A stretch of 63,853 bases of DNA, the filler included, from Reclinomonas americana ATCC 50394 (lineage: Eukaryota), in assembly GCA_048213135.1 (NCBI GenBank). It is 6 parts of 2 records of this genome, joined end to end, with 100 filler letters (N's around TTAATTAATTAA, not from the genome) between each part and the next. Parts side by side here need not be neighbours in the genome. Positions count along the whole stretch, not along the records: positions 12,419 to 40,277 come from PS015339.1; 5 more parts are not named here. One strand, written 5' to 3'. A program made the position numbers and the translations under genes. A model generated the notes under the pieces. It saw only the letters and a list, made by a program, of their open reading frames with translations. It was not told where the DNA came from and searched no databases. This document shows, piece by piece, positions 25,101 to 63,853 of this stretch. Each line of letters opens with the position of its first letter. Positions within the stretch are counted from its first letter, which is position 1.

Positions 25101-28100
25101 CCCCGACGCGCCTGTGCCTCCCGACGCTCCAGTGCCACCCAGTGCACCGACGCCGCCCGACGCTCCGACGCCTCCCACGCCTCCCGACGCGCCGACGCCT
25201 CCCACTCCACCCGATGCCCCCGTGCCGCCGACGCCACCCAATGCCCCTGTGCCACCCGATGCGCCGGTGCCACCGACGCCACCCAACGCTCCAGTGCCGC
25301 CCGATGCGCCGGTGCCACCGACACCGCCGAACGCTCCGGTGCCACCCGATGCTCCCGTGCCGCCGACTCCACCCGATGCACCCACCCCACCGACGCCGCC
25401 GGATGCGCCTGTGCCTCCAACACCACCCAATGCGCCGACGCCGCCGACGCCACCGGATGCGCCAACACCACCTACGCCGCCGGATGCGCCAACACCGCCG
25501 ACGCCACCCAACGCGCCGACGCCGCCGACTCCACCGGATGCACCGACGCCACCGACGCCGCCCGATGCGCCCACACCCCCCACGCCGCCTGGTGCACCGA
25601 CGCCGCCGACGCCGCCGGACGCACCCACGCCACCCACGCCACCCGACGCGCCGACCCCGCCCACTCCACCTGGCGCGCCGACCCCGCCCGACGCCCCAAC
25701 TCCACCAACTCCCCCTGACGCACCGACGCCGCCGACACCACCCGATGCTCCCGCGCCACCCACACCACCGGGTCCTCCGTCGCCTCCCGACGCGCCCACG
25801 CCACCGACTCCACCGACCCCACCGGACGCACCGAGACCGCCACAACCGCCGGGCCCCGACGGCCCCTGGCTAGTGCAGTCGCAAGAGTACGGCGTCCCGC
25901 AGGTGGAGCCAGCTCCGCAAGGTTACGGTGCACCGCAAGTCGTTCCCGCNNNNNNNNNNNNNNNNNNNNNNNNNNNNNNNNNNNNNNNNNNNNNNNNNNN
26001 NNNNNNNNNNNNNNNNNNNNNNNNNNNNNNNNNNNNNNNNNNNNNNNNNNNNNNNNNNNNNNNNNNNNNNNNNNNNNNNNNNNNNNNNNNNNNNNNNNNN
26101 NNNNNNNNNNNNNNNNNNNNNNNNNNNNNNNNNNNNNNNNNNNNNNNNNNNNNNNNNNNNNNNNNNNNNNNNNNNNNNNNNNNNNNNNNNNNNNNNNNNN
26201 NNNNNNNNNNNNNNNNNNNNNNNNNNNNNNNNNNNNNNNNNNNNNNNNNNNNNNNNNNNNNNNNNNNNNNNNNNNNNNNNNNNNNNNNNNNNNNNNNNNN
26301 NNNNNNNNNNNNNNNNNNNNNNNNNNNNNNNNNNNNNNNNNNNNNNNNNNNNNNNNNNNNNNNNNNNNNNNNNNNNNNNNNNNNNNNNNNNNNNNNNNNN
26401 NNNNNNNNNNNNNNNNNNNNNNNNNNNNNNNNNNNNNNNNNNNNNNNNNNNNNNNNNNNNNNNNNNNNNNNNNNNNNNNNNNNNNNNNNNNNNNNNNNNN
26501 NNNNNNNNTCCGCAAGGCTACGGAACCCCGCAGGTGGAACCGGCGCCGCAGGGCTACGGAACACCCCAGGTGGAACCGGCTCCGCAGGGTTACGGCTCAC
26601 CGCAGGTGGTGCCTGCACCGCTCGGTTACGGCACGCCGTCGGTTGAGCCCGCACCGCTTGGTTACGGCTCGCCGCAGGTGGCGCCGGCACCGCTCGGCTA
26701 CGGCTCGCCGTCGGTCGAACCTGCACCGCTGGGCTACGGTTCACCTTCTGTGGAGCCGGCGCCGCAAGGCTACGGCTCACCTTCTGTGGAGCCGGCGCCA
26801 CAAGGCTACGGCTCACCGCAAGTCGAACCGGCGCCTCCGGGCTATGGATCGCCACAAGTCGAACCGGCGCCGCCAGGCTACGGATCGCCGCAAGTGGAGC
26901 CGGCACCTCCGGGTTCCGATGCACCGCAAGTGGAGCCACCAGTTGTCATCAGTTGTGTGTTTGCCTGTGGAAGGGAGAGAACTGCATATTCTTGGTGTGT
27001 AACATGACGTACTGCAGGTGGCCAGACGACAGTGCAGGAGAATGCCGAGGTCGCCGACCCAATGCCCACAGTGGAGGCGCTGCCGGGATCTCCCGAAGGC
27101 CGAGGTGAGAAGCAGTGGTGGGGCGTGGTTTTGGAGTCAGTGACCTTACTCACTAGCACGGCGCAGCGATTGAGGTGACGCTCGACGAAGAGACAAGCGG
27201 TTTGCGATCGTCCCTGCAAGGGAATGTTGGTGCTTTTGACTCACATGAATTGCAGCAGACGACGTTGCTGTGCCGGTGCATGTGGAGGAGGGAGAACAGG
27301 AGGCAAGCGCGAGTGCGGCTGCAGTGGAGAAGAAGCAGGGTGCGTATCCCTTGGCCCTTGACCATTTCTCGTTCGTATTGTTGACGTCTTTTGCCTGCAG
27401 TTATTGCCACCAGCCGCAGCGACAGGAAAGGTGCGAGTGGCGCTGTATTTCATTCTCTTCTTCTCTTTCCTCATCATTCTCTGTTTGCGTCGCAGAAACC
27501 AAAGGTGTGCCGTGGATGACGTCGGCTCGTTTCTGTCACGCTCCTCACCTGTACTCCCCACACAGAGACGCTGCGCTCCATGCTCTCCACCCTGGCGCAT
27601 CTGCAGGCCGCTGAGCGACTGGTCGACCACGCCGCCGCCGTGGACCACCGCGCCTTTGTCGACGGTGTCGCCATCACATCGCTGACCCAGGTCGACAGTG
27701 GTAGCGTGTTTACCGACGAGGATAACGAGGAGCTCACCGATCTGCTGTACTACCAAGCGGCGGCGTACACCGAGGTGAGGGGCAAGGGAAAGGGAAGTGG
27801 AGATGCAGGAGTGAGGAGGTCATTGAGGGAAAGGGAGGTGGAGATGCAGACTTGTAGAGATTGCTGAGAGAAAAGGGGAGTGAAGATGCAGACGAGAGGA
27901 GGTTATTGAGGGAAGGGGAGTGGAGATGCAGACGGGAGGAGGTTATTGAGGGAAAGGGGAGTGAAGATGCAGGAGTGAGGAGGTCATTGAAGTGGAGATG
28001 AAGACGCGAGGAGGTCATTGAGGGAAAGGGAAGTAAAGAAATGCAGACATGAGGAGGTCATTGAGGGAAACGGAGAGTGGAGATGCAGACGTGAGGAGGT

Positions 28101-28762
28101 CATTGAGGGAAAAGGGAAGTGGTGATGCAGACGTGAGGAGGTCACTGAGGGAAACGGAGAGTGGAGATGCAGACGTGAGGAGGTCATTGACGGGTTTGTC
28201 GAGCAGGCACAACGAGAGACATATAGGCAGGTTCAGCACTTGTACACGTGCAATGGGAGATCACTCATGTGAACGAGAGCAGCAAACAGATAGGCGGATT
28301 CATAGAAGAAGAAAAACAAGTGAGCATGCAGTGGGAGTGCGCTGATGTGTGCAATGAACGTCAGACAAACAGACAGATTCAGAACAGAAGTGCAGACAAT
28401 CTCTCCTTGAAGAGGGCTCCGTTTAACATCGACCACAGTCTTTGTCGTAAAACCACACGAAATATGCTGACAGATCACTGCATGCTCATTCATGTGGGTG
28501 TTCTCATCTGCCTTTCGTTGCCTGCAGCACGATTCCGAGACAACAGCTCTCGCCGAGCTGGAGGTGAGGTGTCCCTTTCGCCACCTGTACTCGTCGCATG
28601 ACGCTCATCATGATATCCACACTAAGCACTTGGAATCCAACGACGAACTGCTGGCGCAGGTGAGTCGTCATGTTGCCACTGTACATCCGAAATTGTCTCA
28701 CCAACATGCAACTGCAGTACGACGAGTTCCTCGCACTTGTTCAACTCAATGCTCCTTTCTAA
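21908..28762 (+). CDS. Secreted proline-rich repetitive protein, many small exons
   Basis: Signal-peptide-like [30 protein letters not shown] at 21908; (PT/PV)PP(D/N)A-type repeats 25092-25850; [12 protein letters not shown] repeats 25885-26940; chain of GT-AG micro-exons ending [18 protein letters not shown]. Confidence 0.7.
27775..28190 (+). repeat. Intronic ~43-bp minisatellite
   Basis: Repeated gaggaggtcattgagggaaa..gagtggagatgcagacgt units. Confidence 0.85.
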
Positions 28763-28815: not shown

Positions 28816-31200
28816 TCATGTATTCGCTCTGGCTAACCTCCCACACGCCTCCTTCCACAGACAGCCATACAGCACGCTCCACACCAATGTCCGTCGCATT
28901 CCGTGGCTAGGCAAGGTGCGACCCTTCATCAGAGTGGCCATGCATCGTTCCACGCAACTCAGCTCCTCGTCCAGGAGCACCCACACTGCAACAACTTTTG
29001 AAACACAAAATGGGAAGCACAACGATGCAGCGCGGCGCACCTGGGTCACCAGCTTTGTACACACGCAGCACTCCGGCAGCCTTATCCACTGCGGCAATGT
29101 GCGTCCCGTGCGGTGACACCGCCATGGGCACCGCGCACACCGGCAACGTGTACAACAGTTCCATGTTGCGTGCATCCCAGACGCGCAGCGTGCGGTCCTC
29201 GGCCGACGACGCCACCAGTCGACTGCACAGCAACCAGCCGAGGGCCACAATCTCGGCCGAGTGGCCCACCCCGCTGCCCTCCAGCTCACCGCTGCTCAGG
29301 TTCCACACGTCGACCGTGTCGTCGTCAACCTGGGGGAGGGAAAGGGAGGCGAAGGGAGGGGAGGGGAAAGGGGAGAGAAAGGAGATTAGAGGAGGGAAGG
29401 GAGGGAAAGGAGACGAATACGGGAAGGGGAAGAGAAGTCAATAGAAGTGAAACTGTAAGCGGCAGCACGTGGAGAGGAGAGGTTGGAAAGGACATGTGAG
29501 ACTTGGACTGCGGAATGGGGATGGTACGAAGTAGAGAGTGATAAATTGAAGAGTGAAAGACAGGAAGGGCAGAGAGGCGATCTCTCTTGCTACCCCTTGT
29601 GCTCTGTTCCCTCCTTTCCTAAGTTCTTACCAGATATTGCTCTCTAATACACCCACTCACTCCTCTTCCGCAACCTCCCTGTCTCATTCCCCTGCACTCA
29701 CTCCCTTGCCTGTGTCTGTTGCCCCTCTGTCTCCTCCCTTCCCCTCGACCCCACAAACCAGCGAATTTGAGGCCACGGCAAGCCTCTCATCATCGCTGCT
29801 CCACGCTGCCGCCGCGCACCACCGGCGGGTGGAGGTCGGTGAGCAGGAGGTGAGCACACGCGGTGTGACACCAGAGTCGTCCTCGTCTTCGTCATCACCG
29901 TGGCTGGCCAGACTCCTCCGACTCAACTGGCTCTCCTCCCACGCATGCTGCGGCCAGAGGGACACGTCGCCGTCGAGGGACGAGGAGGCGAGATGAGAGC
30001 CAGAGTGATTGAAGACGACCTGTGATACGCGTTTAATATGGGAAGAGGGAGATAGAGGCAAGAGAGCAACGTGGCGCAACACTGGTCACTGCCGATTTGT
30101 GCACGCCAAGCGTCACTGAGCTCCCCATTCCGTCGCCGGCCACCTGCACCACTCGCACGGCGCCCGTCTGCAGGCCCATGGCGACGAGCGATCCATCTCG
30201 CGTCACACTCAAGCCTGCGTGTTTTGTTAACCGTGATGAGAAACTCACAACAAGAAACCTGAGCGCGACACGCAACTGTTCACGCGAATCGAGTGCTTTC
30301 TACTGTCGACGTCGATCTCGAGCACTGTTGTCTCCTCGTCACCGCGGAGCATCGACAGCGATCCGGCAGTGCTCGCGGTGAAAAGCACATCACGCGCACT
30401 GGCCATGACGTGCACGCTGCTGGTCAGTGACGTGGCGCGCAAATCACTGTCTTCGTTGTGTGTGTCGCAGAGGGATCTGGGCGGGCGAAGGGAAGGAGAT
30501 GAGCCTGGAATCAAAAGAGGAGTTGCTCCGCTCTCCTTCTCTCACTGCAGTCACTCTCCCTTCTTCTCCCTCTCTCTCTCATCCTGCTCTTTCAACAGTC
30601 TGTCTCTCAGCCCCTTCTCTCACAACATCAGCAAATGACATGCTCTTCTCCTCCTGTTCTCTCACCTTCAACAGTGTGCCTCTCCCCTTTCACACTGCAT
30701 CACTCTCCCTTCTTCTCCCTCTCTCGACTCCTGTTCTTCAACAGTCTGCCACTCAGCCTTGAAGCACCTCACTCACAACATCAGCAAAAAGGCATGCTCT
30801 TCTCCTCCTATCCTCTCTCCTTCCCTCACTGCACTCACTCTCCTTTCCTCTCCGTCTCTCTCTCGAATCCTGCTCTTCAGCAGTGTGCCTCTCAGCCTTG
30901 AGCACCTCAGCCCCTTTCTCTCACAACATCAGCATAAGGCATGCTTTCTCCTTTCCTCTCTCTTGCCGCTCTCTCTCACTCTCTCCTTCTCCCTTCCCCT
31001 TCCCCCTTCTCCCCCACCACGACTCACACTCCTCCATTCCCCTCCACTCCCACCGCCACCTGTCGCGCCTCCCAGTTCCCTCCAAAGAAGCACACCGCCT
31101 GCACCGCCTGCGCCGACTTTATCCCTCTCAACAATCGCCACGCGCCAACCAGTGCAGGCGCCCGTAATATCCGCAAATTCGGTCTCCTTTGCTGCTGCTG
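28816..31200 (-). CDS. Intron-rich divergent WD40 protein carrying the same C-terminal module as the arrays
   Basis: WD exons SHLASSSLDGDVSLW and GHSAEIVALGW..VASSAEDRTLRVWD; intron 28986-29040 gives GDP/VWVLLDEELSCVERCM...RRTLVWSVLYGCLWKEA; 5' end uncertain. Confidence 0.75.
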
Positions 31201-32534: not shown

Positions 32535-35358
32535 ATGGATCCACTACTTCAACAGCACGCACCAGCCGAGGCGACGCAGTCGACACTCATGTCGCAGATC
32601 ATCTTCGGCACCATGCTGGCCTTCTTTCTCACGGTGGCGCAGGGTGCATTCCACCGACTGCTGAACTGGCTGCTGGACATTGCACTGTTCCCGCTGCGGC
32701 GTATCGTGCGGACCTACACCTTTGATGCAGTTGCGTCGCACCGCGTACGGGCCAGGGGGGAAAGGCACTGACTCCCATGTCGGCAGGGCCACAAGCACTT
32801 CAAGACACTGCGACGCGCCGTCAAGGCACTGGTCACCGAGGCCGGTGTCAGTCGATCCACGATGCCAATGGTGATGAAACCGGCGCGTGGTGGCAAGCCG
32901 GCCCGCGTCACCATTTCCACCGAAGACAACTTCAGCAAGATGCTGTGGATCGAGGGCATGCCCGCGTGGTGCGTGAGCAACGAAGTGGCGATCACCTTGT
33001 CTCTTCTTTTTACCTTTCATTCTCCCCCCACAGGCTGACATATGACAATGGCGAGAAGGCTGGAAGTGCGGTACGACGGTGAGCAGAAGCACGCAACTCT
33101 TCTGTACTTCTTCTTGTCTTCTCACCTCTCTGGCGATGCGCAGCGTGGACGGCTCGGCGGCTCGTGTCAGTGCCAATTTCCGCCTCACAGGCGTGCTGCT
33201 CGACTTGGATCGCCTGCAGCGCTTCCTGGCCAAGCACCAGAGTCGCTCGACGTACCTCCACAGCAATCGCTCCGTGTATCCTCGCCGTGTGCCACAGGCG
33301 AATTCTGTGTACGCGCCAGAGGTGTGGGAACGCGTCTGCAATCACCTGGAGTCCTTCCTCGACTTGAATCAGACCGACAGCAAGCACACGGGCATTCTGC
33401 TGCATGGACCTCCAGGGTGAGTGTGCGAGTTGCACGAGGGAGGGGGAGATGAAAGCGAGTTGCTCACCGGCTGTATTTTCTTCGCTGCGTGCAGAACGGG
33501 CAAGACAACGGTGAGTGAAACATGCGCGCAGACTCACAGCGACAAAGGAGTACTCACTTTGTGTGCGCACAGCTCGTGTGGACGCTGAGTCACAAGTACC
33601 AGGTGCGGGAAACCACGATTCACGCACATCTCATGCCTCTTTCGCTCACCTCCGTCGCCACAGATGAACGTCATTGCACTGTCGCACTCGGCGCTCGAGT
33701 CCAGCATGACGCCGCCCGTGTGCCAGGAGGATACCATCATCCTGCTCGACGATATCGATGTGATTCTTGACAACAGGTGGGAGGAGAGAAGGGCTGAGGG
33801 GGGAAGGGGGAATGGGGGAGAGGGGGAATGGGCAAAGGGGGCAAAGGGGGCGGGAGGGAGAGAGAGAGAGAGAGAGTTGCAATTGATGGCTGTCATGTTG
33901 CTTCGCTCTCTGGTCACTCTCCATCTCACTGTCATTCTCTGCCATGATTTTCACTCTCACTCTCCACGTTCCATTCACTGTGTTCCACTTTCCATGTTGC
34001 ACTCTCCATGTTCCAATCTCTCCATGCTCCGCTCTCCGCGTTTCACTGCCTTATTCAACAATCCATGCTTCATTCTCCATATTCCACTCTGCTTGTCTCC
34101 ACTCTGCTTGTCTCCGCTCTGCGTGTCTCCGTTCTGCGTGTCTCCACTCTGCGTGTCTCCACTCTGCGTGTCTCCGCTCTGCACGTCTCCACTCTGCTTG
34201 TCTCCACTCTGCTTGTCTCCACTCTGCTTGTCTCCACTCTGCTTGTCTCCACTCTGCTTGTCTCCACTCTGCTTGTCTCCACTCTGCTTGTCTCCACTCT
34301 GCTTGTCTCCACTCTGCTTGTCTCCACTCTGCTTGTCTCCACTCTGCGTGTCTCCACTCTGCGTGTCTCTACTCTGCATGTCTCTACTCTGCATGTCTCT
34401 ACTCTGCATGTCTCTACTCTGCATGTCTCTACTCTGCATGTCTCTACTCTGCATGTCTCTACTCTGCATGTCTCTACTCTGCATGTCTCTACTCTGCATG
34501 TCTCTACTCTGCATGTCTCTACTCAGCATGTCTCCACTCTGCGTGTCTCCACTCTGCGTGTCTTCACTGTGCTTGTCTCCACTCTGCTTGTCTCCACTCT
34601 GCTTGCATCGAGCACTGCTCATTTCTCCACGCTTCCTCCAATCCCTCCTTTCCCCCTCCCTCTTTTTCCCCTCTTCATATCTCCCCCTCCTCTCCCTTTC
34701 CCTTTATCCCCCTTCCCCCTACTCTTCCCCTGCATCTCCCTTCTCACATCGCTTCTCCTCCTCTCCGCGCAGCAAAATCGTGCACAGCGTGCAACAAATC
34801 CTGGAGGAAGACCATCCGGGCAAGATCGTGTACATCCTCACCACCAACTACCGCGACAAGTTGCCGCCGGCACTGCGCCGCCGCGGCCGTGTCGATCTGG
34901 AGGTGGAGATTCCGCTGATGAGTCTCCCCGAGGCCACCGCCCTGGTGGCCCGGCACTTTGCCGATCCCGGCGACGCGCAGCAAGTGCTGGCCAAGCTCAA
35001 GCCGCACCTTCCACTGGCGCCGTGTGTGGTGCGCTCGATTCTCCTGCGGCGCGGCGGTCTGCACGAGGTGCTGCGTGAGCTGTCGGGCGATCTGTCCGAC
35101 GAGAAGAAGCTGTACACGTCGTGGATCAAGGCCACCAATCCGGAACCGGTGCTCGTCACACACGACAGCGGAAGCAGCAGCGCGAGCGCAAGTGAGGGAA
35201 GCGTGAGTAGCGACGACGACGACGAGGAAGATGAGAAGGAGGAGGACGTGGCTGCGGAGGTGGTGGTGGTGGCGGAGGTCGAGAGTGGCAAGCCGCACAT
35301 CAATGTGCGCCGGCGCGTCAAGACGACGAGCGCCGTCCCAGTTGAGCAGAGTGTGTAA
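32535..35358 (+). CDS. BCS1-like AAA+ ATPase with N-terminal TM segment
   Basis: Walker A GILLHGPPG/TGKTT (spliced), Walker B IILLDDID, second-region ILTTNYRDKLPPALRRRGRVD. Confidence 0.88.
34083..34605 (+). repeat. Intronic 15-bp minisatellite (about 35 units)
   Basis: Blocks of tctccactctgcttg, tctccactctgcgtg and tctctactctgcatg. Confidence 0.95.
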
Positions 35359-35661: not shown

Positions 35662-38600
35662 TCATCGTGTTCCAAGATCGTCGCGAACAAATGCCAACAC
35701 TGCAGAACAATAACATGAATCAGCATGATCCACACACTCACTGTCGAAGCACACTAATACCTTGCATCAACAGGAACGACGGAGACCAAACGGGCGCCAG
35801 CTTGTCATAGTTGAGCCACAGGCGCGTGTCAGCGTCAATGGAGGGATGATCGAGATCGGAAACGACGCGAATGAGCGGCGGCGACCAAGGATAGTCGTCG
35901 GAGAGCACCATTCGTATCTCCTCCGTGTGGTCATCGAGCTACATCCGATAGTACGGAAGGAGAGTGAGCAAAGGGTACAGATGGAAGCACACATCACCTA
36001 AAGGTGTACCTCCATGCGACCCGCCACGCAGCGAGGGTTGGTGGGCAGAATCTCCAGCCGCAAGCCATCAGTGTCACCGACGGAGGGCCACGCGCGACTC
36101 TCTTGCGCCATTCGCGCGGCAAGGGCGGCCGGTGGTTGGGCGCTGGCGTCGCTCAGCGAGTCGTAGACAGCCAGGAGTTGCTGCGGGGAGGCGCCTGCAA
36201 AAGAGACGGGTGGGCAAGAGAGGGGGAGAAGCGGGAAGGGAGAGGGGGAGAGCGGAAGGGAGAGGGGACAGCAGCGAGAGGAGGAGGAGCGAGAAAAGGA
36301 GAGAGCGAGAGGAGCAGAACAGCAAGAGGGGGAGAGAGCGAGAGGAGCACAGCAGCGAGAGGCGGAGCAGCGAGAGCAGGAGCAGCGAGAGCAGGAGCAG
36401 CGAGAGCAGGAGCAGCGAGAGGAGCGGAACAGCGAGAGGAGAGAGCAGCGAGAGGAGCAGAACAGCGAGAGGAGAGAGCAGCGAGAGGAGCAGAACAGCG
36501 AGAGGAGAGAGCAGCGAGAGGGAGCAGCGAGACGACGAGCAGAGAGAGGAGAAAGCAGCGAGAGGAAGAGGAGCGAGAGGGGGAGAAGCGAGAGGGAGGA
36601 GNNNNNNNNNNNNNNNNNNNNNNNNNNNNNNNNNNNNNNNNNNNNNNNNNNNNNNNNNNNNNNNNNNNNNNNNNNNNNNNNNNNNNNNNNNNNNNNNNNN
36701 NNNNNNNNNNNNNNNNNNNNNNNNNNNNNNNNNNNNNNNNNNNNNNNNNNNNNNNNNNNNNNNNNNNNNNNNNNNNNNNNNNNNNNNNNNNNNNNNNNNN
36801 NNNNNNNNNNNNNNNNNNNNNNNNNNNNNNNNNNNNNNNNNNNNNNNNNNNNNNNNNNNNNNNNNNNNNNNNNNNNNNNNNNNNNNNNNNNNNNNNNNNN
36901 NNNNNNNNNNNNNNNNNNNNNNNNNNNNNNNNNNNNNNNNNNNNNNNNNNNNNNNNNNNNNNNNNNNNNNNNNNNNNNNNNNNNNNNNNNNNNNNNNNNN
37001 NNNNNNNNNNNNNNNNNNNNNNNNNNNNNNNNGAGAGCTAACCCGTGTGTTTTCGCTCTTTCCCACTATTTGTCCTTTCATCTTCCTTCTCCCGTTTCCA
37101 CCTCACTCCCTTCTCCCATTCCACACCTGGCTCCACAAGGGGTGGCGGTCTTCGCACAACAATCATCAGTGGCTCATCCTCGTAGCTCCCAATCGCGTAG
37201 TCGCGCAGAGTCTTGCCGTCGGCCAGCCAGTGCTCGCGAAAGCGAATACGCATGCGGTCGCGCAGCTCGCCAAACTGCATCGCAGACTGTCAACACAAGA
37301 CAGTGGCGCTGGAGAATAACATTCTCCCTCTCCCACCTGCATCTCCAACAAGTACTTGAACTCGTCCACCGTGAGACTGGCGAAAGACCACACGCGGCAG
37401 TAGCCGTGGTCGCCGAGGCCCGTGACCAGCACCTGTACGGGACCGTCGTAGATGGTGACTCGTGGCAGCGAGGCTTGGAGCGCGGCAACCAGGTGACGAT
37501 GCTGGCCGAGTTCGAGGGTTTGTCGGATGGAGATGGACTGCAGCAGAGGGCACTGTGCAAAATTTGTGGTCAGAGAAACGCAACAAAACAGACAACTCGA
37601 TGTGTGCGCACCTGTGCCGCCGCCTGCACGATGCCATCGAGGGACAGATTCGGGCCGCTGCATCCGTCCAGCACCACGTGACGCACAGTATCTGTTATGC
37701 ACACACGACTGTTGAGTGGAAGCAAGCGATACATGAATTCCGTTTCAGCTCGTCGTCACCTTGGCAGTGCTGCACGCGAGGGGAGAATGAGCAACACACA
37801 AACACACAGGGGAATATGCAAACACCGAGGAAGGGTCACGCACGAATAATATCTGTCGAAGTGCGGCGTCGGGCAGCCGAAACATGCAACGCTCGGGGAC
37901 ACCTGTGCAAAAGTCAAGCGTGCTGCGCAGTCGGAGCACGCGATTGACACGCTGCGCACGACATTGGAAGCATGGAAATGGGCGACGGTACATCACAAAA
38001 AACAGACAGTGTCAGCTCACCACTCGCAGCCGACCGCACACAGAACTTAGTTTGACCACGCACGGCGTGCTCAAGTATGAGAGCATGTGCACAAAGGCGT
38101 ATTCGCAGAGGCCCCTGGTGGGAGTGGGCAGTGAGTGGAGAGAACAGAAGCAAAGGAAGGAAATGAGCGCACCACAGTGTGGCCTCCTCTTGCCGCGCGT
38201 CGACCTCACGTAATCTCAACACGGGGGAGGGAGCGTCGCGGAACTTGATCAGATGTACTGAATGGGGACAAGGGGAAGTGAGGACAAGGGGCAGCGAGGA
38301 CAAGGGGCAGCGAGGACAAGGGGCAGTGAGGACAAGGGGAAGGGACGACAGGGACAGGAATGAGAAGAACAAGAAGAATTCAGAGAAACGGACAGGGGAG
38401 AGATAGTGAGGAACGGAGAGCACCAATATAAGAAGGGAACGACGAATCAGCGAGGCGAGCAGCAAGCAAAGGAAGACAAGACAAGCAGGAAGAAGAGCGA
38501 CAGAAGAAAAGGAAAGGAACGCAGCAAGAGATGAAGAGAACAAGCGAAGAGAAGCGAGCAATGAGAGTGGACAGGACGAAGATGAGTAAGAGAGCAGACC

Positions 38601-40746: not shown

Positions 40747-41832
40747 TCACAGGCTGTCGTTCGTGAAGCACCGATGCACGACGACCTCTGCCTCCTCCAC
40801 CACAAAACAGCGCATTACAATCTCCACCAAACAGCGCGGATCTGGATCGTCTTCCCCTTCACCCTCAACCTGCATCTCCTGCACTGCTTGCATCGCCGAC
40901 TGTGCGCATTCGAGCTCCTGTCGAGCGAGGCCGTAAGGTGTGGACCACACGCGCACTGCGTTGTCCTGGCTTCCACTCACGATGTGTTACCCATCTGGGG
41001 AGACGGCGACAGAGTTCACTTGCCCAGTGTGCCCTACCAACCGCCACACTTCCTCGCCACTCGCCATTAACCAGATGCGCACTGTGTTGTCCCAGCTGCC
41101 ACTCACAACGTGGCGACCATCGGGAGTGACGGTGACAGACGTAACCGCGCGCGTGTGCCCCATGATTTGTCGCACTTCCTCGCCGCTCTCCACGCACCAT
41201 ACTAGAACCGTCTTATCCCAGCTCCCGCTCACCACGTACCGTCCGTCAGGAGTGACTGCGACAGAGGTCACAGTTCCCGAGTGTCGGTCCCACCGTTGCA
41301 GTTGTTCTCCACTCGCCAGTGACCACACGCACACTGTCTTGTCCGCACTGCCGCTGACAACGCGCTGCCCGTCGGGGGTGACGGCGACAGAGTACACGGC
41401 AAGAGTGTGCCCCTCCAGCCGTTGCACTGTCTCGCCACTCGCCAGCGACCACACTCGCACAGGCATGTCACTGCTCCCACTCACAATGAACTGTCCGTCG
41501 GGAGTGACCGCAACACACAGCACTGCCGCGGTGTGTCCCTTCAACTGCTGTACTTCCTCTCCGCTCGCCAGCGACCACACACGCACAGTACCATCAGCCG
41601 CTCCACTCACAATGTGCACACTGTCTGGAGTGACGGCGACCGCATTCAACCAAATTGTGTGTCCCCGCAAGTGCAGCACTTGCTCTCCACTCGCCACAGA
41701 CCACACTCGCACGATGTGGTCAGCACTACCAGTCACCACATGCTGACCAGTGGGAGTGACTGCGACGGAATAGACGGTGTCGGGGTGTCCATGCAGGCAC
41801 CGAGAAGGGAGAGATGGACTAGCAACGGACAT
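40747..41832 (-). pseudogene. WD40-array copy A with in-frame nonsense codon in blade 7
   Basis: TAA at 40987-40989 where paralogues have Gln (DGQHIVSGS); the frame continues intact to the conserved tail. Confidence 0.8.
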
Positions 41833-42990: not shown

Positions 42991-44085
42991 TCACAGACGA
43001 TGGCTGCCGTCCGGAAAGTATCGATGCACGATGACCTCAGCCTCCTCGACCATGAAACAACGCAGCACGATCTCCACCAAACAGCGCGGATCTGGATCGG
43101 CTTCCCTTTCACCCTCCTCTCGCTGCAGATCCTGCACTGCTTGCATGGCCGACTGCGCGCATCTGACCTCCTGTTGCGCGAGGCCGTAAGGTGTGGACCA
43201 CACGCGCACAGTCTTATCCACAGATCCGCTCACGATGTGCTGACCGTCGGGAGAGACGACGACAGCGAACAGGCTTCTAGTGTGCCCCTCCAGCCGCCGC
43301 ACTTCCTCGCCACTCGCCATGGACCACACTCGCACTGTCGCGTCCCAACCACCACTCACAACGTGTTGGCCATCTGGTGTGACAGCAACAGAGTTTATCG
43401 ACGCAGAGCGCACATCCAGCCGTCGCAATTCCTCTCCACTTGCCAGCGACCACACCCGTATCGTTCTGTCATTGCTCCCACTCACCACGTGCTGGCTGTC
43501 GAGAGTGACGGCGACACAAATCACCAGTCCAGTGTGTCCCTCCATTCGGAGAACTTCATCTCCAGTCGCCAGAGACCACACCCGCACTGCCATGTCACCG
43601 CTCCCGCTGACGATGTAGTGACCATCAGAAGTGACAGTGACAGAGTACACCACGCCAGTGTGTCCCTCAAACCGCCGCACCTCTTCCCCACTCGCCAGAG
43701 ACCACACACGCACCGTCTGATCATGGCTCCCGCTCACTACGTGCTGGCTGTCGGGGGAGATAGCGACAGACATCACCCAGCCAGTGTGCCCTCTCAGCCG
43801 CCGCAACTGTTGCCCACTTGCCAGCGACCACACTCGCACAGTTCGGTCACGACTCCCGCTCACCACGTGCAGGCCATCGGGAGTAACAGCAACAGAGAAC
43901 ACCAACCCCTTGTGTCGTTGCGAGTGCTGTACCTGTTCTCCACTCGCCAGCGACCATACGCGCACAATCGCGTCGTCGCCCGCACTGACAACATGTTGGC
44001 CGTCCACAGTGACAGCGACGGAGTGGATGGCGCTGGTGTGCCCGCAAAGGCATCGGTAGGGGAGATATTGAGGCGCCAGGGACAT
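42991..44085 (-). CDS. Intronless 7-blade WD40 protein with conserved tail (copy B)
   Basis: MSLAPQYLPYRCLCGH..., seven repeats, tail STPYGLAQQEVRCAQSAM...RCLVEIVLRCFMVEEA. Confidence 0.92.
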   Translation of the reverse strand: MSLAPQYLPYRCLCGHTSAIHSVAVTVDGQHVVSAGDDAIVRVWSLASGEQVQHSQRHKGLVFSVAVTPDGLHVVSGSRDRTVRVWSLASGQQLRRLRGHTGWVMSVAISPDSQHVVSGSHDQTVRVWSLASGEEVRRFEGHTGVVYSVTVTSDGHYIVSGSGDMAVRVWSLATGDEVLRMEGHTGLVICVAVTLDSQHVVSGSNDRTIRVWSLASGEELRRLDVRSASINSVAVTPDGQHVVSGGWDATVRVWSMASGEEVRRLEGHTRSLFAVVVSPDGQHIVSGSVDKTVRVWSTPYGLAQQEVRCAQSAMQAVQDLQREEGEREADPDPRCLVEIVLRCFMVEEAEVIVHRYFPDGSHRL

Positions 44086-44390: not shown

Positions 44391-45476
44391 CTAGAAGTAG
44401 CCGTTTGCAAAGCATCGATGCACAACAACCGCGGCCTCCTCGACCATGAAACAACGCAGCACGATCTCTGCGAGGCAGCGCAAATCGCGTTTCTCCTCCA
44501 CTTCTTCTTCCTCCCGACGCTCCTCTCGCTGCATCTCCTGCACCGCGCGCATCGCCGATCGCGCGCAGTCGAGCTCCTGTTGCGCGAGTCCACATGGTGT
44601 GGACCACAGTCGCACTGTCTTATCCACAGATCCGCTCACGATGTGCTGCCCATTGGGAGAGACAACGACAGAGTTCACTTGCCCCTCCAACCGCCGCACT
44701 TCCTCCCCACTCGCCACGGACCACACTCGCACGCTCTTGTCCCAACTGCCACTCACGATGTGCTGGCCATCTGGGGTGACGGCGACAGAGGACAAAGAGC
44801 GCACCTCCAGCCGTTGCAATTCCTCTCCACTCGCCAGTGACCACACCCGTACCGTGCCGTCATTGCCCCCACTCACCACGTGCTGGTTATCGAGAGTGAC
44901 GGCAACACGAATCACCAATCCAGTGTGTCCCTCCAGCCGTCGCACCTCTGCGCCACACTCCAGCGACCACACCCGCACTGTCTTGTCTCCACTCCCACTG
45001 ACGATGAACAGACCATCGCGCGTGACGGACACAGCGTACACCACACTAGTGTGTCCCTCCAACCGCCGCACCTCTGCGCCACTCGCCAGAGACCACACAC
45101 GCACCGTCTGCTCATGACCTCCACTCACCACGTGCTGGCTGTCGGGAGTCACCGCGACAGAATACACCGTGTGTGCATGTCCCCTCATTTGGTGCACCTC
45201 CACCCCACTTGCCAGTGACCACACTCGCACCGTCTGGTCATAACTCCCACTCACCACGTGCTGGCTGTCGGGAGTGACAGCAAGAGAGGATATCGCTTCC
45301 GTGTGTCCCTGCATCTGTTGCACCTCCTCGCCACTGGCCAGCGACCATACGCGCACAATCGAGTCATCGCCCGCACTGATGATGTGCAGGCTGTCGGCGG
45401 TGACAGCGACTCTTTCCACGGAGTGGGTGAGTACGCACAGGCATCGGGAAGGGAGAGATGGAGGCGCAGCGGACAT
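44391..45476 (-). CDS. Intronless 7-blade WD40 protein with conserved tail (copy C)
   Basis: MSAAPPSLPSRCLC..., seven repeats with small deletions in blades 6-7, tail RCLAEIVLRCFMVEEA. Confidence 0.9.
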   Translation of the reverse strand: MSAAPPSLPSRCLCVLTHSVERVAVTADSLHIISAGDDSIVRVWSLASGEEVQQMQGHTEAISSLAVTPDSQHVVSGSYDQTVRVWSLASGVEVHQMRGHAHTVYSVAVTPDSQHVVSGGHEQTVRVWSLASGAEVRRLEGHTSVVYAVSVTRDGLFIVSGSGDKTVRVWSLECGAEVRRLEGHTGLVIRVAVTLDNQHVVSGGNDGTVRVWSLASGEELQRLEVRSLSSVAVTPDGQHIVSGSWDKSVRVWSVASGEEVRRLEGQVNSVVVSPNGQHIVSGSVDKTVRLWSTPCGLAQQELDCARSAMRAVQEMQREERREEEEVEEKRDLRCLAEIVLRCFMVEEAAVVVHRCFANGYF

Positions 45477-45847: not shown

Positions 45848-46933
45848 TCACAGGCTGTCGGTCGTGAAACACCGATAGACAATGACCTGTGCCTCCTCCA
45901 CCACAAAACAGCGCAACACAATCTCCACCAAACAGCGCGGATCCGGGTCGTCTTCCCCTTCCCCCTCGATAGGCATCTCCTGCACTACTTGCAGGGCCGA
46001 CTGTGCGTATTCGAGCTCCTGTCGAGCCAATCCACACGATGTGGACCACAGTCGCACGGCCTTGTCCTGGCTTCCACTCACAATGTATTGACCGTCGGGG
46101 GAGACGGCGACAGAGTTCACTTGCCCAGTGTTCCCGTCCAACCGCCGCACTTCCTCGCCACTCGCCATGAACCAGATGCGAACTGTGTTGTCCCAGCTGC
46201 CACTCACAACGTGGCGACCATCGGGAGTGACGGTGACAGACGTAACCACGCGTGTGTGCCCCTCTAATCGTCGCAATTCCTCGCCGCTCTCCACGCACCA
46301 TACTAGAACCGTTTTATCCCAGCTCCCGCTCACCACGTACCGTCCGTCAGGAGTGACTGCGACAGAGGTCACAGTTCCCGAGTGTCGGTCCCACCGTCGC
46401 AGTTGTTCTCCACTCGCCAGGGACCACACGCACACTGTCTTGTCCCCACTCCCGCTGACAACATGCTGACCGTCGGGGGTGACGGCGACAGAGTACACGG
46501 CGCGAGTGTGCCCCTCCAGCCATTGCACTGTCTCGCCGCTCGCCAGCGACCACACTCGCACACGCACGTCATCGCTCCCACTCACAATGAACTGTCCGTC
46601 GGGAGTGACCGCAACACACAGCACTGCCGCGGTGTGTCCCTTTAACTGCTGTACTTCCTCTCCGCTCGCCAGCGACCACACACGCACAGTACCATCAGCC
46701 GCTCCACTCACAATGTGCTCACCGTTGGGAGTGACGGCGACTGCATTCAACCAACTTGTGTGTCCCTGCAAGTGCAGCACCTGCTCTCCACTCGCCACAG
46801 ACCACACTCGCACGCTGCTGTCAGCACTACCAGTCACCACATGCTGACCAGTGGGAGTGACTGCGACGGAATAGACGGTGTCGGGGTGTCCATGCAGGCA
46901 TCGAGAAGGGAGAGATGGACGTGCAACGGACAT
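45848..46933 (-). CDS. Intronless 7-blade WD40 protein with conserved tail (copy D)
   Basis: MSVARPSLPSRCLHGHPDTVYS...; close paralogue of copy A. Confidence 0.92.
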   Translation of the reverse strand: MSVARPSLPSRCLHGHPDTVYSVAVTPTGQHVVTGSADSSVRVWSVASGEQVLHLQGHTSWLNAVAVTPNGEHIVSGAADGTVRVWSLASGEEVQQLKGHTAAVLCVAVTPDGQFIVSGSDDVRVRVWSLASGETVQWLEGHTRAVYSVAVTPDGQHVVSGSGDKTVCVWSLASGEQLRRWDRHSGTVTSVAVTPDGRYVVSGSWDKTVLVWCVESGEELRRLEGHTRVVTSVTVTPDGRHVVSGSWDNTVRIWFMASGEEVRRLDGNTGQVNSVAVSPDGQYIVSGSQDKAVRLWSTSCGLARQELEYAQSALQVVQEMPIEGEGEDDPDPRCLVEIVLRCFVVEEAQVIVYRCFTTDSL

Positions 46934-47959: not shown

Positions 47960-49899
47960 TCAAAGGCTGTCGCTCGTGAAGCACCGATGCATGACGACCT
48001 CTGCCTCCTCCACCACAAAACAGCGCATCACAATCTCCACCAAACAGCGCGGATCCGAATCGTCTTCCCCTTCTCCCTCGACCTGCATCTCCTGCACTAC
48101 TTGCAGGGCCGACTGCGCGCATCTGACCTCCTGTCGAGCGAGTCCATACGATGTGGACCACACGCGCACTGTCTTATCCACGGATCCGCTCACAACGTGT
48201 TGACCGTCAGGGGAGACGGCGACAGAGTACACTGGCCCAGTGTGCCCTACCAACCGCCGCACTTCCTCGCCACTCGCCATGAACCAGATGCACACTGTGT
48301 TGTCCCAGCTGCCACTCACCACGTGGCGATCATCGGGAGTGACGGCGACAGTCGTAACCCTTTGCGAGTGCCCCTCCAATCGTCGTACTACCTCGCCGCT
48401 CTCCATGCACCATACTAGAACCGTCCTATCCCAGCTCCCGCTCACCACGTGCCGACCGTCGGGAGTGACTGCGACTGAGGCAACGGCTGCCGAGTGACCT
48501 CTCCACCGTCGCGGTTGTTCTCCACTCGCCAGTGACCACACGCACACTGTGTTGTCCGCACTCCCACTGACAACATGCTGACCGTCAGGAGCAAAGGCAA
48601 CAGAGTACACGGCACGAGTGTGCCCCTCCAGCCGTTGCACTGTCTCGCCACTCGCCAGCGACCACACTCGCACACTCTTGTCACCGCTCCCNNNNNNNNN
48701 NNNNNNNNNNNNNNNNNNNNNNNNNNNNNNNNNNNNNNNNNNNNNNNNNNNNNNNNNNNNNNNNNNNNNNNNNNNNNNNNNNNNNNNNNNNNNNNNNNNN
48801 NNNNNNNNNNNNNNNNNNNNNNNNNNNNNNNNNNNNNNNNNNNNNNNNNNNNNNNNNNNNNNNNNNNNNNNNNNNNNNNNNNNNNNNNNNNNNNNNNNNN
48901 NNNNNNNNNNNNNNNNNNNNNNNNNNNNNNNNNNNNNNNNNNNNNNNNNNNNNNNNNNNNNNNNNNNNNNNNNNNNNNNNNNNNNNNNNNNNNNNNNNNN
49001 NNNNNNNNNNNNNNNNNNNNNNNNNNNNNNNNNNNNNNNNNNNNNNNNNNNNNNNNNNNNNNNNNNNNNNNNNNNNNNNNNNNNNNNNNNNNNNNNNNNN
49101 NNNNNNNNNNNNNNNNNNNNNNNNNNNNNNNNNNNNNNNNNNNNNNNNNNNNNNNNNNNNNNNNNNNNNNNNNNNNNNNNNNNNNNNNNNNNNNNNNNNN
49201 NNNNNNNNNNNNNNNNNNNNNNNNNNNNNNNNNNNNNNNNNNNNNNNNNNNNNNNNNNNNNNNNNNNNNNNNNNNNNNNNNNNNNNNNNNNNNNNNNNNN
49301 NNNNNNNNNNNNNNNNNNNNNNNNNNNNNNNNNNNNNNNNNNNNNNNNNNNNNNNNNNNNNNNNNNNNNNNNNNNNNNNNNNNNNNNNNNNNNNNNNNNN
49401 NNNNNNNNNNNNNNNNNNNNNNNNNNNNNNNNNNNNNNNNNNNNNNNNNNNNNNNNNNNNNNNNNNNNNNNNNNNNNNNNNNNNNNNNNNNNNNNNNNNN
49501 NNNNNNNNNNNNNNNNNNNNNNNNNNNNNNNNNNNNNNNNNNNNNNNNACTCACAATGAACTGACCATCCGGAGAGACGGCAACGCAACGCACTGAAGAT
49601 TTGTCTATCTTCAACCGCTGCACCTCCTCGCCACTCGCCAGTGACCATACGCACACAGTGCCATCAACCGCTCCACTCACAATGTGCTCACTATCGGGAG
49701 TGACGGCGACGGCTTTCAGCCTACTTCTGTGTCCCTGCAAATGCAACACCTGCTCTCCACTCGCCACAGACCACACTCGCACGCTGCATCCACTCGCAGA
49801 CACCACATGTTGACCAGTGGGAGTGACTGCGACGGAATAGACGGTGTCGGGGTGTCCATGCAGGCATCGGCAATGGAGAGATGGATGTGCAACGGACAT
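47960..49899 (-). CDS. WD40-array copy F (two halves flanking an N-gap; may be two genes)
   Basis: N-half ends QFIVS at 49549; C-half starts GSGDKS at 48691 and runs to the conserved tail. Confidence 0.8.
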
Positions 49900-61964: not shown

Positions 61965-63752
61965 TCACTCTGCCGCCGACTTGGCCTTATTGCTGCTGCT
62001 CTTCTTCGTCCGTCTCTTCGGCTTCTCCACCTCCTTCTTCTCAGCCGCCACGACCGCCTGCTTTGGCTCCACATCAATCTCCTCAATCTCCTCCTCCTCC
62101 ATCATCTCCAGCCGATCAATGGCCGACTCCAGCTCGGTGAGCACCACGCGGCCATCACCGTCCGGGTCCAGCCGGCTGACAATGTACGCCACCACCTTGT
62201 CGTCGCTCGGGCGGTCACGCAGCAGCGACAGCACCATTTGCAGCTCCTGCACAGTCACAATGCCGTCGCGGTCCTTGTCGAGCAGGTTGAGGCCGGTGCC
62301 GATCTGCCGGTCAACGGCGCGAATCTCCTCGTCGAGCTTCACAATCATGCGCGACAGCTTCTGATCCAGCGCGCCCAGCTTGCGCAGCTCCGGATCCACC
62401 GTCTCCGCGGCGTCCGGGTACAGACGAGTGGCCAGCAGCGAGGCCAGCAGGTCGGCACGATCGCGCTTCAGTTCCTCCAACTCGGTCGACTCGCGCAGCG
62501 TGGCGCTGGCGGCGGCCAGCACCGACACAGCCTCGCTGATCTCGCGAATCTTTGTCAGTGTCACCTCCTCGTCGGCATCGTCTTCTGGCATCACTGTCGA
62601 CGCCGTCGTCGCTACCGCATCGCCCGTGACGGTGGCGGTGGTTGACGGAGCAGTCTCCGCCGCCGCCATCGTCGACGCCGCCGACGATGACAACACCACT
62701 GGTGACTCCACGGCCGACGGCACAGGCGGAAGGCTGGCCGCCTGCGCTGCCTGCTCGGCCTGCCGCTCGGCGGTCTCGGCGGCCTCCTTGGCCGCAGCCA
62801 CGGCCTCCTGCTCGGTCAGCACATGGTGGTGCTCGGCAGCGGCCTTCTTGCGCTTCTGCTCATCCTCCTCCGCAATCAGTTCCTCCTGCCGCTGAATGGC
62901 CTCCAGACGCGACTCGCGACGCTTGGCCTCGTTGTCGGCACTGAGCACCGAGTCGACGACCTCGTCGGGGAGCGAGCCAATGGTCTCTTGCAGGGCGCGG
63001 AAGGTGCTGCAAGAAGGAAGAAGGTGAGGGAGAATCAAAAGAAAGGAGGAGGAGCTAACGGAGTAGGAGTACCTCGAGGTAAAGGCAAACGCCCGCGACA
63101 TGATGAGCAACGTGGACGGCACGCTCTTCTGGTTCGACAACTCGAGCCACTCCTGCAGCTCACGCTGCAACTTGGCGCGCGCCACACCCTTGGTGTTGAT
63201 GCCGCGGTCCAGACACGCCTGCGTCAGCTCCTCCACCGAGAGCGACGCCACACCCTCCCACCAAATCAGCTTGTCGTCCGAGTTGATCTGGCGCAGGCGG
63301 CTGCGCAGACGGAAACGCAGCAGAGCGTCGGCACCGTAGGCATTCAGACCGAGGAAGCGCGCCATGGCCACCAGCTGCGGACGCGACAGGTTGTCGAGAG
63401 TGATTTCGTCGGAGAAGAGCGGCGAGAAGCGCAGCAGGTCCTCGTTGGAGACGGTCTTGCCCTCACGCACAGCCTCAATGAAGGACTGGAGAGCGGCGGC
63501 CTCGGCGGCACGCGGACCCTTGATCTGCGTCGCCATCTCCTCCACCGTGTCCTGCAGGAACTTGGCCAGCTCCAGCTTGGCCTTCAGGGCGCGCTTCAAA
63601 TCCTCCTCCTTTTTCAGCTTGTCCTCGAAGGTCGACGGCAGCATGTTGGGGAAGAGTTTCAAGCAGATTGGTAGCAGCAGCTCCATGAAGGGCACAATGA
63701 CGAAGACGGCCATGGGGACCATGCGGAAGAGGTCCGCGCTGGTGCCCAGGAG
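61965..63752 (-). CDS. LETM1: LETM1/Mdm38 mitochondrial inner-membrane protein with EF-hands (5' part outside window)
   Basis: DLFRMVPMAVFVIVPFMELLLPICLKLFPNMLPSTF, FSDEITLDNLSRPQL, ACLDRG, WLELSNQKSVPSTLLIMSRA, EF-hands DKDRDGIVTVQEL and DPDGDGRVVLTEL; intron 63007-63072. Confidence 0.95.
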   Translation of the reverse strand, partial: LLGTSADLFRMVPMAVFVIVPFMELLLPICLKLFPNMLPSTFEDKLKKEEDLKRALKAKLELAKFLQDTVEEMATQIKGPRAAEAAALQSFIEAVREGKTVSNEDLLRFSPLFSDEITLDNLSRPQLVAMARFLGLNAYGADALLRFRLRSRLRQINSDDKLIWWEGVASLSVEELTQACLDRGINTKGVARAKLQRELQEWLELSNQKSVPSTLLIMSRAFAFTSRYSYSVSSSSFLLILPHLLPSCSTFRALQETIGSLPDEVVDSVLSADNEAKRRESRLEAIQRQEELIAEEDEQKRKKAAAEHHHVLTEQEAVAAAKEAAETAERQAEQAAQAASLPPVPSAVESPVVLSSSAASTMAAAETAPSTTATVTGDAVATTASTVMPEDDADEEVTLTKIREISEAVSVLAAASATLRESTELEELKRDRADLLASLLATRLYPDAAETVDPELRKLGALDQKLSRMIVKLDEEIRAVDRQIGTGLNLLDKDRDGIVTVQELQMVLSLLRDRPSDDKVVAYIVSRLDPDGDGRVVLTELESAIDRLEMMEEEEIEEIDVEPKQAVVAAEKKEVEKPKRRTKKSSSNKAKSAAE

Positions 63753-63853
63753 CTGCGAGGGGGAATAGGGGGGAAGGGTGTGAGGGGAAGAGGGGGAAGG
63801 GGAATAGAGGAGGGGGAAGGGGGAAGGGGGAAGGGGGAAGGGGGAAGGGGGAA

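Follow-up and report, generated by a model that had tools for sequence, protein, structure and literature searches.

The array WD40 genes in a 63,853-nucleotide stretch of Reclinomonas americana ATCC 50394 DNA (the window) end in a shared tail, which is a real, unnamed, lineage-restricted two-helix module. Judging from its sequence, the last exon of a divergent, intron-rich WD40 gene in the same window is probably homologous to this tail, by a marginal match. The similarity was above chance only when the helices were scored as blocks or at their fixed place after the last blade.

The array tail and its relatives

The window is eukaryotic scaffold sequence that bears introns, N gaps and contig spacers:

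12319, 40278, 47102, 52909 and 59275: 100-nt spacers (44 N, TTAATTAATTAA, 44 N), contig joins

Because the spacers are contig joins, the spacing in the window between the divergent gene and the second array is no guide to their real distance. The array tail described in the original prediction was present in eight copies:

12510..12701 (+): array tail copy, from a sequence search of the window
13526..13729 (+): array tail copy, from the same kind of search
14882..15073 (+): array tail copy in gene 13994-15076, by sequence search of the window
40750..40947 (-): intact array tail copy; an in-frame stop interrupts the last blade of its gene (40750-41832), upstream of the tail
42994..43200 (-): array tail copy, by sequence search of the window
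44394..44606 (-): array tail copy, by sequence search of the window
45851..46048 (-): array tail copy whose protein was modelled with AlphaFold2
47963..48160 (-): array tail copy, by sequence search of the window

Searching 1.84 billion protein representatives with the tail profile gave three matches, P0001 (E 8e-25), P0002 (4e-8) and P0003 (1e-4). All are WD40 proteins with a C-terminal tail carrying Arg-Cys-Phe. P0001, the nearest relative of the array tail, is an EST-derived protein of R. americana itself (EukProt), with 58% identity to an array protein, the same as between array copies. P0002 and P0003 are unnamed Logan proteins with very divergent propellers (29% and 22% identity to an array protein), and they were the sole matches when 8,000 longer proteins were scored with the tail profile. 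Viral contigs (none of 20 stretches) and metagenome contigs (none of 328) gave no match to the profile. A word-index search with the tail region returned 34 candidates, none of them at E ≤10. The ESM Atlas gave nothing usable for the array tail, and a PDB sequence search gave chance-level matches only. Pfam and NCBIfam offered no library name, with DUF4761, ANAPC5 and GreA far under the cut-off, and no description of the tail was seen in the literature search listings.

The AlphaFold2 model, calculated from a 10-row alignment, has 28 strands, then helices at residues 299-319 and 332-356. As modelled, the fold is a seven-bladed propeller followed by two helices. The mean pLDDT was 88.5, with 60-75 per block in the tail and 60-71 in helix 332-356. 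Helix 2 was the most constrained part, with a dN/dS of 0.11, compared with 0.34 for helix 1 and 0.31 for the propeller (eight tails, four complete genes). The linker between the helices is variable and acidic. The occurrence of the tail on two very divergent propellers (those of P0002 and P0003), the constraint on helix 2 and the two modelled helices all support the earlier claim of a real domain, for the most part with evidence that was not available to that claim. A decayed blade was ruled out as an identity for the array tail by the blade-profile z-scores of the 11 true tails (-1.0 to 1.9).

A different tail was observed in L003 (7480-11194), where two adjacent Vermiphilus WD40 proteins carry a helical-looking tail of their own with no match to the array tail family.

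The divergent WD40 gene and its last exon

The divergent gene was modelled on the minus strand from the following features:

28816..28985 (-): predicted last exon, a candidate distant tail (56 codons plus stop), from frame and profile tests
28828..28896 (-): candidate helix 2 of the divergent tail, from MAFFT alignment to the tail family
28924..28977 (-): candidate helix 1 of the divergent tail, amphipathic (helical moment 1.48)
28986..29040 (-): predicted 55-nt GT-AG intron, from splice-site sequence and frame
29041..29329 (-): WD40 exon, Pfam WD40 27.2 bits (cut-off 27)
29759..30019 (-): WD40 exon, Pfam WD40 26.3 bits (cut-off 27)
30081..30214 (-): WD40 exon flanked by 62- and 61-nt introns, from the gene model
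30277..30504 (-): exon in which one blade is visible by eye only (z 0.7) and the next begins; acceptor 30504 or 30476
31060..31189 (-): candidate upstream exon, readable as blade-like (z 0.3), that joins 30504 in frame

The 55-nt intron proposed earlier at 28986-29040 was confirmed in the sequence, starting with GTGCGC and ending with TTGCAG; its splicing is predicted. Its removal keeps the frame, as had also been proposed, and leads from the last WD40 exon through the tail to the stop at 28816-28818. Reading through it unspliced leads to a stop at 28910-28912. A five-exon model (30476-30277, 30214-30081, 30019-29759, 29329-29041, 28985-28816) with introns of 62, 61, 429 and 55 nt is open through to the stop. 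Verified introns as short as 55 nt are described for another jakobid (PMC7050145). In the list of 88 YAG donor-acceptor pairs, donor 29040 was the only one with a cag|GT context, and acceptor 28986 was both the first YAG and the richest in pyrimidines.

Codon evidence on the tail frame of the last exon was mixed. GC3 was 0.70 in the tail frame versus 0.54 and 0.52. The codon score was -0.05 in the tail frame and +0.07 in the unspliced one; of 4,129 random frames, 14% were equally high.

Several other genes were seen in the window. A small spliced gene at about 27580-28762 (+), its first exon without a Pfam family, lies tail-to-tail with the divergent gene, about 54 nt from its stop. A proline-rich repeat protein at 25092-27140 (+) has two repeat types (PTPPDA-like, then a 15-residue one), and its end is probably a transmembrane or anchor region. 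Ordinary neighbours were a TLDc-domain gene at 9486-10037 (-), an ankyrin protein at 20296-21075 (-), an AAA ATPase piece at 33589-35355 (+) and a LETM1 with EF-hand at 61968-63851 (-).

Tail, blade or chance match

The earlier claim that the divergent gene shares the tail, which called for a profile match between the two, stood only in part. It fell below threshold with standard tools: BLASTP gave E 0.07 and hhalign 1.3% and 0.8%, both in another (blade) register, and local HMMER gave 2.3 and 3.5 bits on the tail models. BLAST, hhalign and full-length HMMER all picked the blade register for this exon. A word-index search with it among longer proteins gave one candidate and no match, and the ESM Atlas gave three unnamed clusters below 0.9, which are a lead only.

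Block and anchored profiles placed the exon above chance. With a free linker, a two-block profile gave it the top score, 32.8, of the 752 non-array ORFs (760 window ORFs), equalled in 2 of 10,000 shuffles; with a profile from 11 sequences it was again the best non-array ORF (19.4; 3 of 5,000 shuffles). The score of the divergent tail was reached at 1-2 of about 27,000 start positions in a small control set of 67 proteins (29,794 residues, mostly bacterial), at none of their 67 C-termini and in 0-3 of 10,000 shuffles. A profile built from P0002 and P0003 only, two sequences that the original prediction had not used, picked the same start in the exon, at a level reached by 5 of 26,578 positions and 11 of 10,000 shuffles. 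The anchored HMM gave +3.6 to +7.0 bits, equalled by 0-3 of 1,876 real-protein control windows, and here the tail model beat the blade model by 4.4-7.8 bits; the three entropy settings are identical models and count once, and the two blade rows are one model. In left-out tests, verified distant members scored 55.6 and 45.3 bits compared with 3.6 for the divergent tail. Without the position anchor, the score of the exon lay at the upper edge of the noise, at 6.8 versus 6.3 and 6.1, or at 10.1 behind 11.4.

Alignment with MAFFT recovered the register proposed earlier and retained an invariant Arg beyond the motif given there. Of 22 columns that at least 10 of 11 tails conserve, the divergent tail keeps eight, one of these probably an alignment-end artefact. 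Its helix 2 has the family Arg, Leu, Val, Ala and last Arg, and lacks Arg-Cys-Phe and both conserved Glu positions; Tyr-Gly-Cys and Lys stand where the family has its invariant Arg-Cys-Phe and Glu, the face under the strongest constraint. A one-residue shift of this helix regains Cys and Glu and loses the last Arg. The divergent tail follows the last blade directly and is C-terminal, having three extra residues before its amphipathic helix 1 and a linker of 8 residues, compared with 7-16 in the family.

In the register picked by the standard tools, the last exon would be a degenerate WD40 blade: it would close the propeller, a short stub would come after it, and its likeness to the tail would be due to chance. 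We consider this unlikely. The Trp of the exon follows the previous c-strand aromatic by 41 residues, a normal repeat period, and Gly..Ser..Thr..Val-Trp-Ser..Gly occur at repeat spacing, with Val-Trp-Ser inside candidate helix 2. On the blade profile the exon reached z 3.7, compared with 3.3 for the preceding blade and the far lower range of the true tails, and one glocal test favoured the blade models (z 3.9-4.7) over the tail models (3.0-3.2). Only five blades are clear by score without this exon; against this, two more are readable upstream by eye (z 0.7 and 0.3). The exon also lacks Gly-His and Asp, carries Pro in the would-be b strand and has no Pfam WD40 match. Besides the log-odds deficit of the blade model given above, a softer blade model was equalled by 17 of 1,876 control windows. 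The first half of the exon is strongly amphipathic-helical: the helix 1 moment of 1.48 falls within the 1.00-1.64 of array tails and relatives and exceeds that of every one of 45 blade segments (1.25 or less). Hydropathy correlations were 0.67 and 0.52 in the tail register versus 0.10 in the blade register.

Alternatively, the exon could encode an unrelated helical C-terminus, or the intron could be retained and the protein end 50 residues past the last strand, so that the match is due to chance. Such an origin is quite unlikely: at the anchored position the probability of chance is about 1 in 1,000 or less, and the best local donor and acceptor produce exactly the tail frame. On the default and eset1 tail models the unspliced end lost 39-42 bits, its shorter length being part of the cause. 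Chance would fit the failure of every standard tool to detect the match and the lack of a codon-score advantage for the tail frame. DNA similarity was absent in four of five array tails tested, the fifth being at 18 of 500 shuffles, and the unrelated ribosomal protein eL34 reached about 10 bits on the tail profile. When intron 28986-29040 (-) was read unspliced, a Pro-Arg-Cys...Cys-Phe stretch was the best non-array helix-2 match of the window, at 22.5 versus 12.6 for the exon. No DNA similarity was seen there, and the likeness is probably due to chance. That it outscores the exon on helix 2 shows that such chance matches arise easily.

Proposed docking, possible cullin recruitment and known systems

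We lean towards the array tail being a lineage-restricted two-helix docking module behind a seven-bladed propeller, and the divergent gene a far-diverged homologue. Homology as a whole, counted over this reading and the cullin reading below, is probable. In the docking reading, the propeller would bind cargo, amphipathic helix 1 would pack against helix 2, and helix 2 could dock one shared partner or a second copy through its conserved Arg-Cys-Phe/Glu face; the partner would be something other than Elongin C bound through a canonical BC-box. The divergent tail may have kept the helical pattern and lost the conserved face, and would then probably no longer bind the partner of the array proteins. 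In this large WD40 family, from a little-studied eukaryote branch, the tail alone is constant while the rest varies, and its partner would tell the function of the family. If the intron-rich gene, with its unrelated-looking propeller, carries a true copy, the module predates the arrays. Being marginal and lacking the conserved face, this copy would be of little help in naming the partner.

The cullin recruitment proposed earlier for the array tail is a weak idea. In this reading, which we regard as distinctly improbable, the tail would be homologous in both gene types and act as a substrate-receptor box of the cullin-RING kind; it would most likely be a degenerate first helix of an F-box, binding a Skp1 paralogue. 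Substrate receptors combine a variable propeller with a constant tail, the layout also found here. An F-box starts with the consensus LPxE(I/L)xxxI(F/L). No tail of 12 fitted it strictly; a relaxed Leu-Pro-Glu fitted two, P0001 and P0003, the divergent tail not being among them. In these two, helix 2 begins with Leu-Pro-Glu and has hydrophobic residues at consensus F-box positions 5, 6, 9 and 10. The Pro is missing in the other 10 tails, and F-box Leu13 is replaced by Glu or Asp. We know of no counterpart in the F-box to the Arg-Cys-Phe-x-x-Glu of the array tail. The DWD box of DCAF and DWD proteins is a 16-residue element with WDxR; WDxR occurred in none of seven array sequences, one WDAR was found in the divergent gene, and the full box was searched for in tails only.

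The BC-box proposed earlier for helix 2 was not supported: the consensus (S,T,P)Lxxx(C,S,A)xxx-hydrophobic, as used here (PMC4878042, PMC6232478), fitted none of 12 tails with strict or relaxed patterns. Of the downstream cullin-box patterns (LPxP or hydrophobic-Pxx), LPxP fitted none of 12 tails, and no Cul5 box was seen in any of the 12; the Cul2 pattern fitted two of 12, but at the start of helix 2 with no BC-box ahead. According to PMC12816148, Cul2 and Cul5 are specific to animals. The conserved face is missing from the divergent tail. Pfam F-box and PRANC models matched none of 11 tails, nor the divergent exon; this test is weak because it also missed a control from the window, an F-box-like first helix alone. 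The model has one 25-residue helix (332-356, at pLDDT 60-71), against an F-box that breaks into short helices (PMC9414399), two or three of which would be expected after Leu-Pro. Poxviral C-terminal F-boxes are truncated, and the first helix alone suffices for CP77-Skp1 binding (PMC4353913). In Discoba, cullin receptors of a non-canonical kind are described, trypanosome cullins using novel Skp1 paralogues and non-canonical receptors (PMC12816148). Single-helix binding to Skp1 and such receptors are why the F-box reading keeps its small share. Still less probable is that an F-box first helix was remodelled into a new kind of cullin-adaptor box, tying the large jakobid repertoire of variable WD40 propellers to a lineage-specific Skp1-cullin ligase, with the intron-rich gene as an old member and the intronless arrays arising by retroposition.

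An F-box-like start was also seen elsewhere in the window, at 37769-37902 (-) in a multi-domain gene, split by a 74-nt intron with a donor similar to that of the 28986-29040 intron. Its first helix alone had no Pfam match, and at the E2-like end of the gene the tail was not seen by eye.

WSB1 and WSB2 have a WD40-SOCS-box architecture, in which, as here, a short C-terminal helical module follows a propeller. The VHL and SOCS boxes (PMC4878042) are alike in this respect. Unlike them, the tails here have no BC-box (12 of 12), no Cul5 box and no Pfam SOCS match. The best fold matches of the array propeller were two highly repetitive WD40 propellers, PDB 2ymu (Z 49.4, rmsd 1.7, 289 aligned) and 5yzv (Z 48.3, rmsd 1.1, 286 aligned), at 40-41% identity. 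They differ in that the matches stop near array residue 297; propellers filled the fold searches, and the tail was barely covered. The poxviral and Orientia ankyrin-F-box (PRANC) proteins (PMC4353913, PMC9414399) differ in having ankyrin repeats where WD40 is found here, and the array tail has one long helix in the model and no F-box or PRANC match. They are alike in that an enlarged family of repeat proteins keeps its C-terminal helical element constant, and the Leu-Pro-Glu start of two of the 12 tails adds to the likeness.
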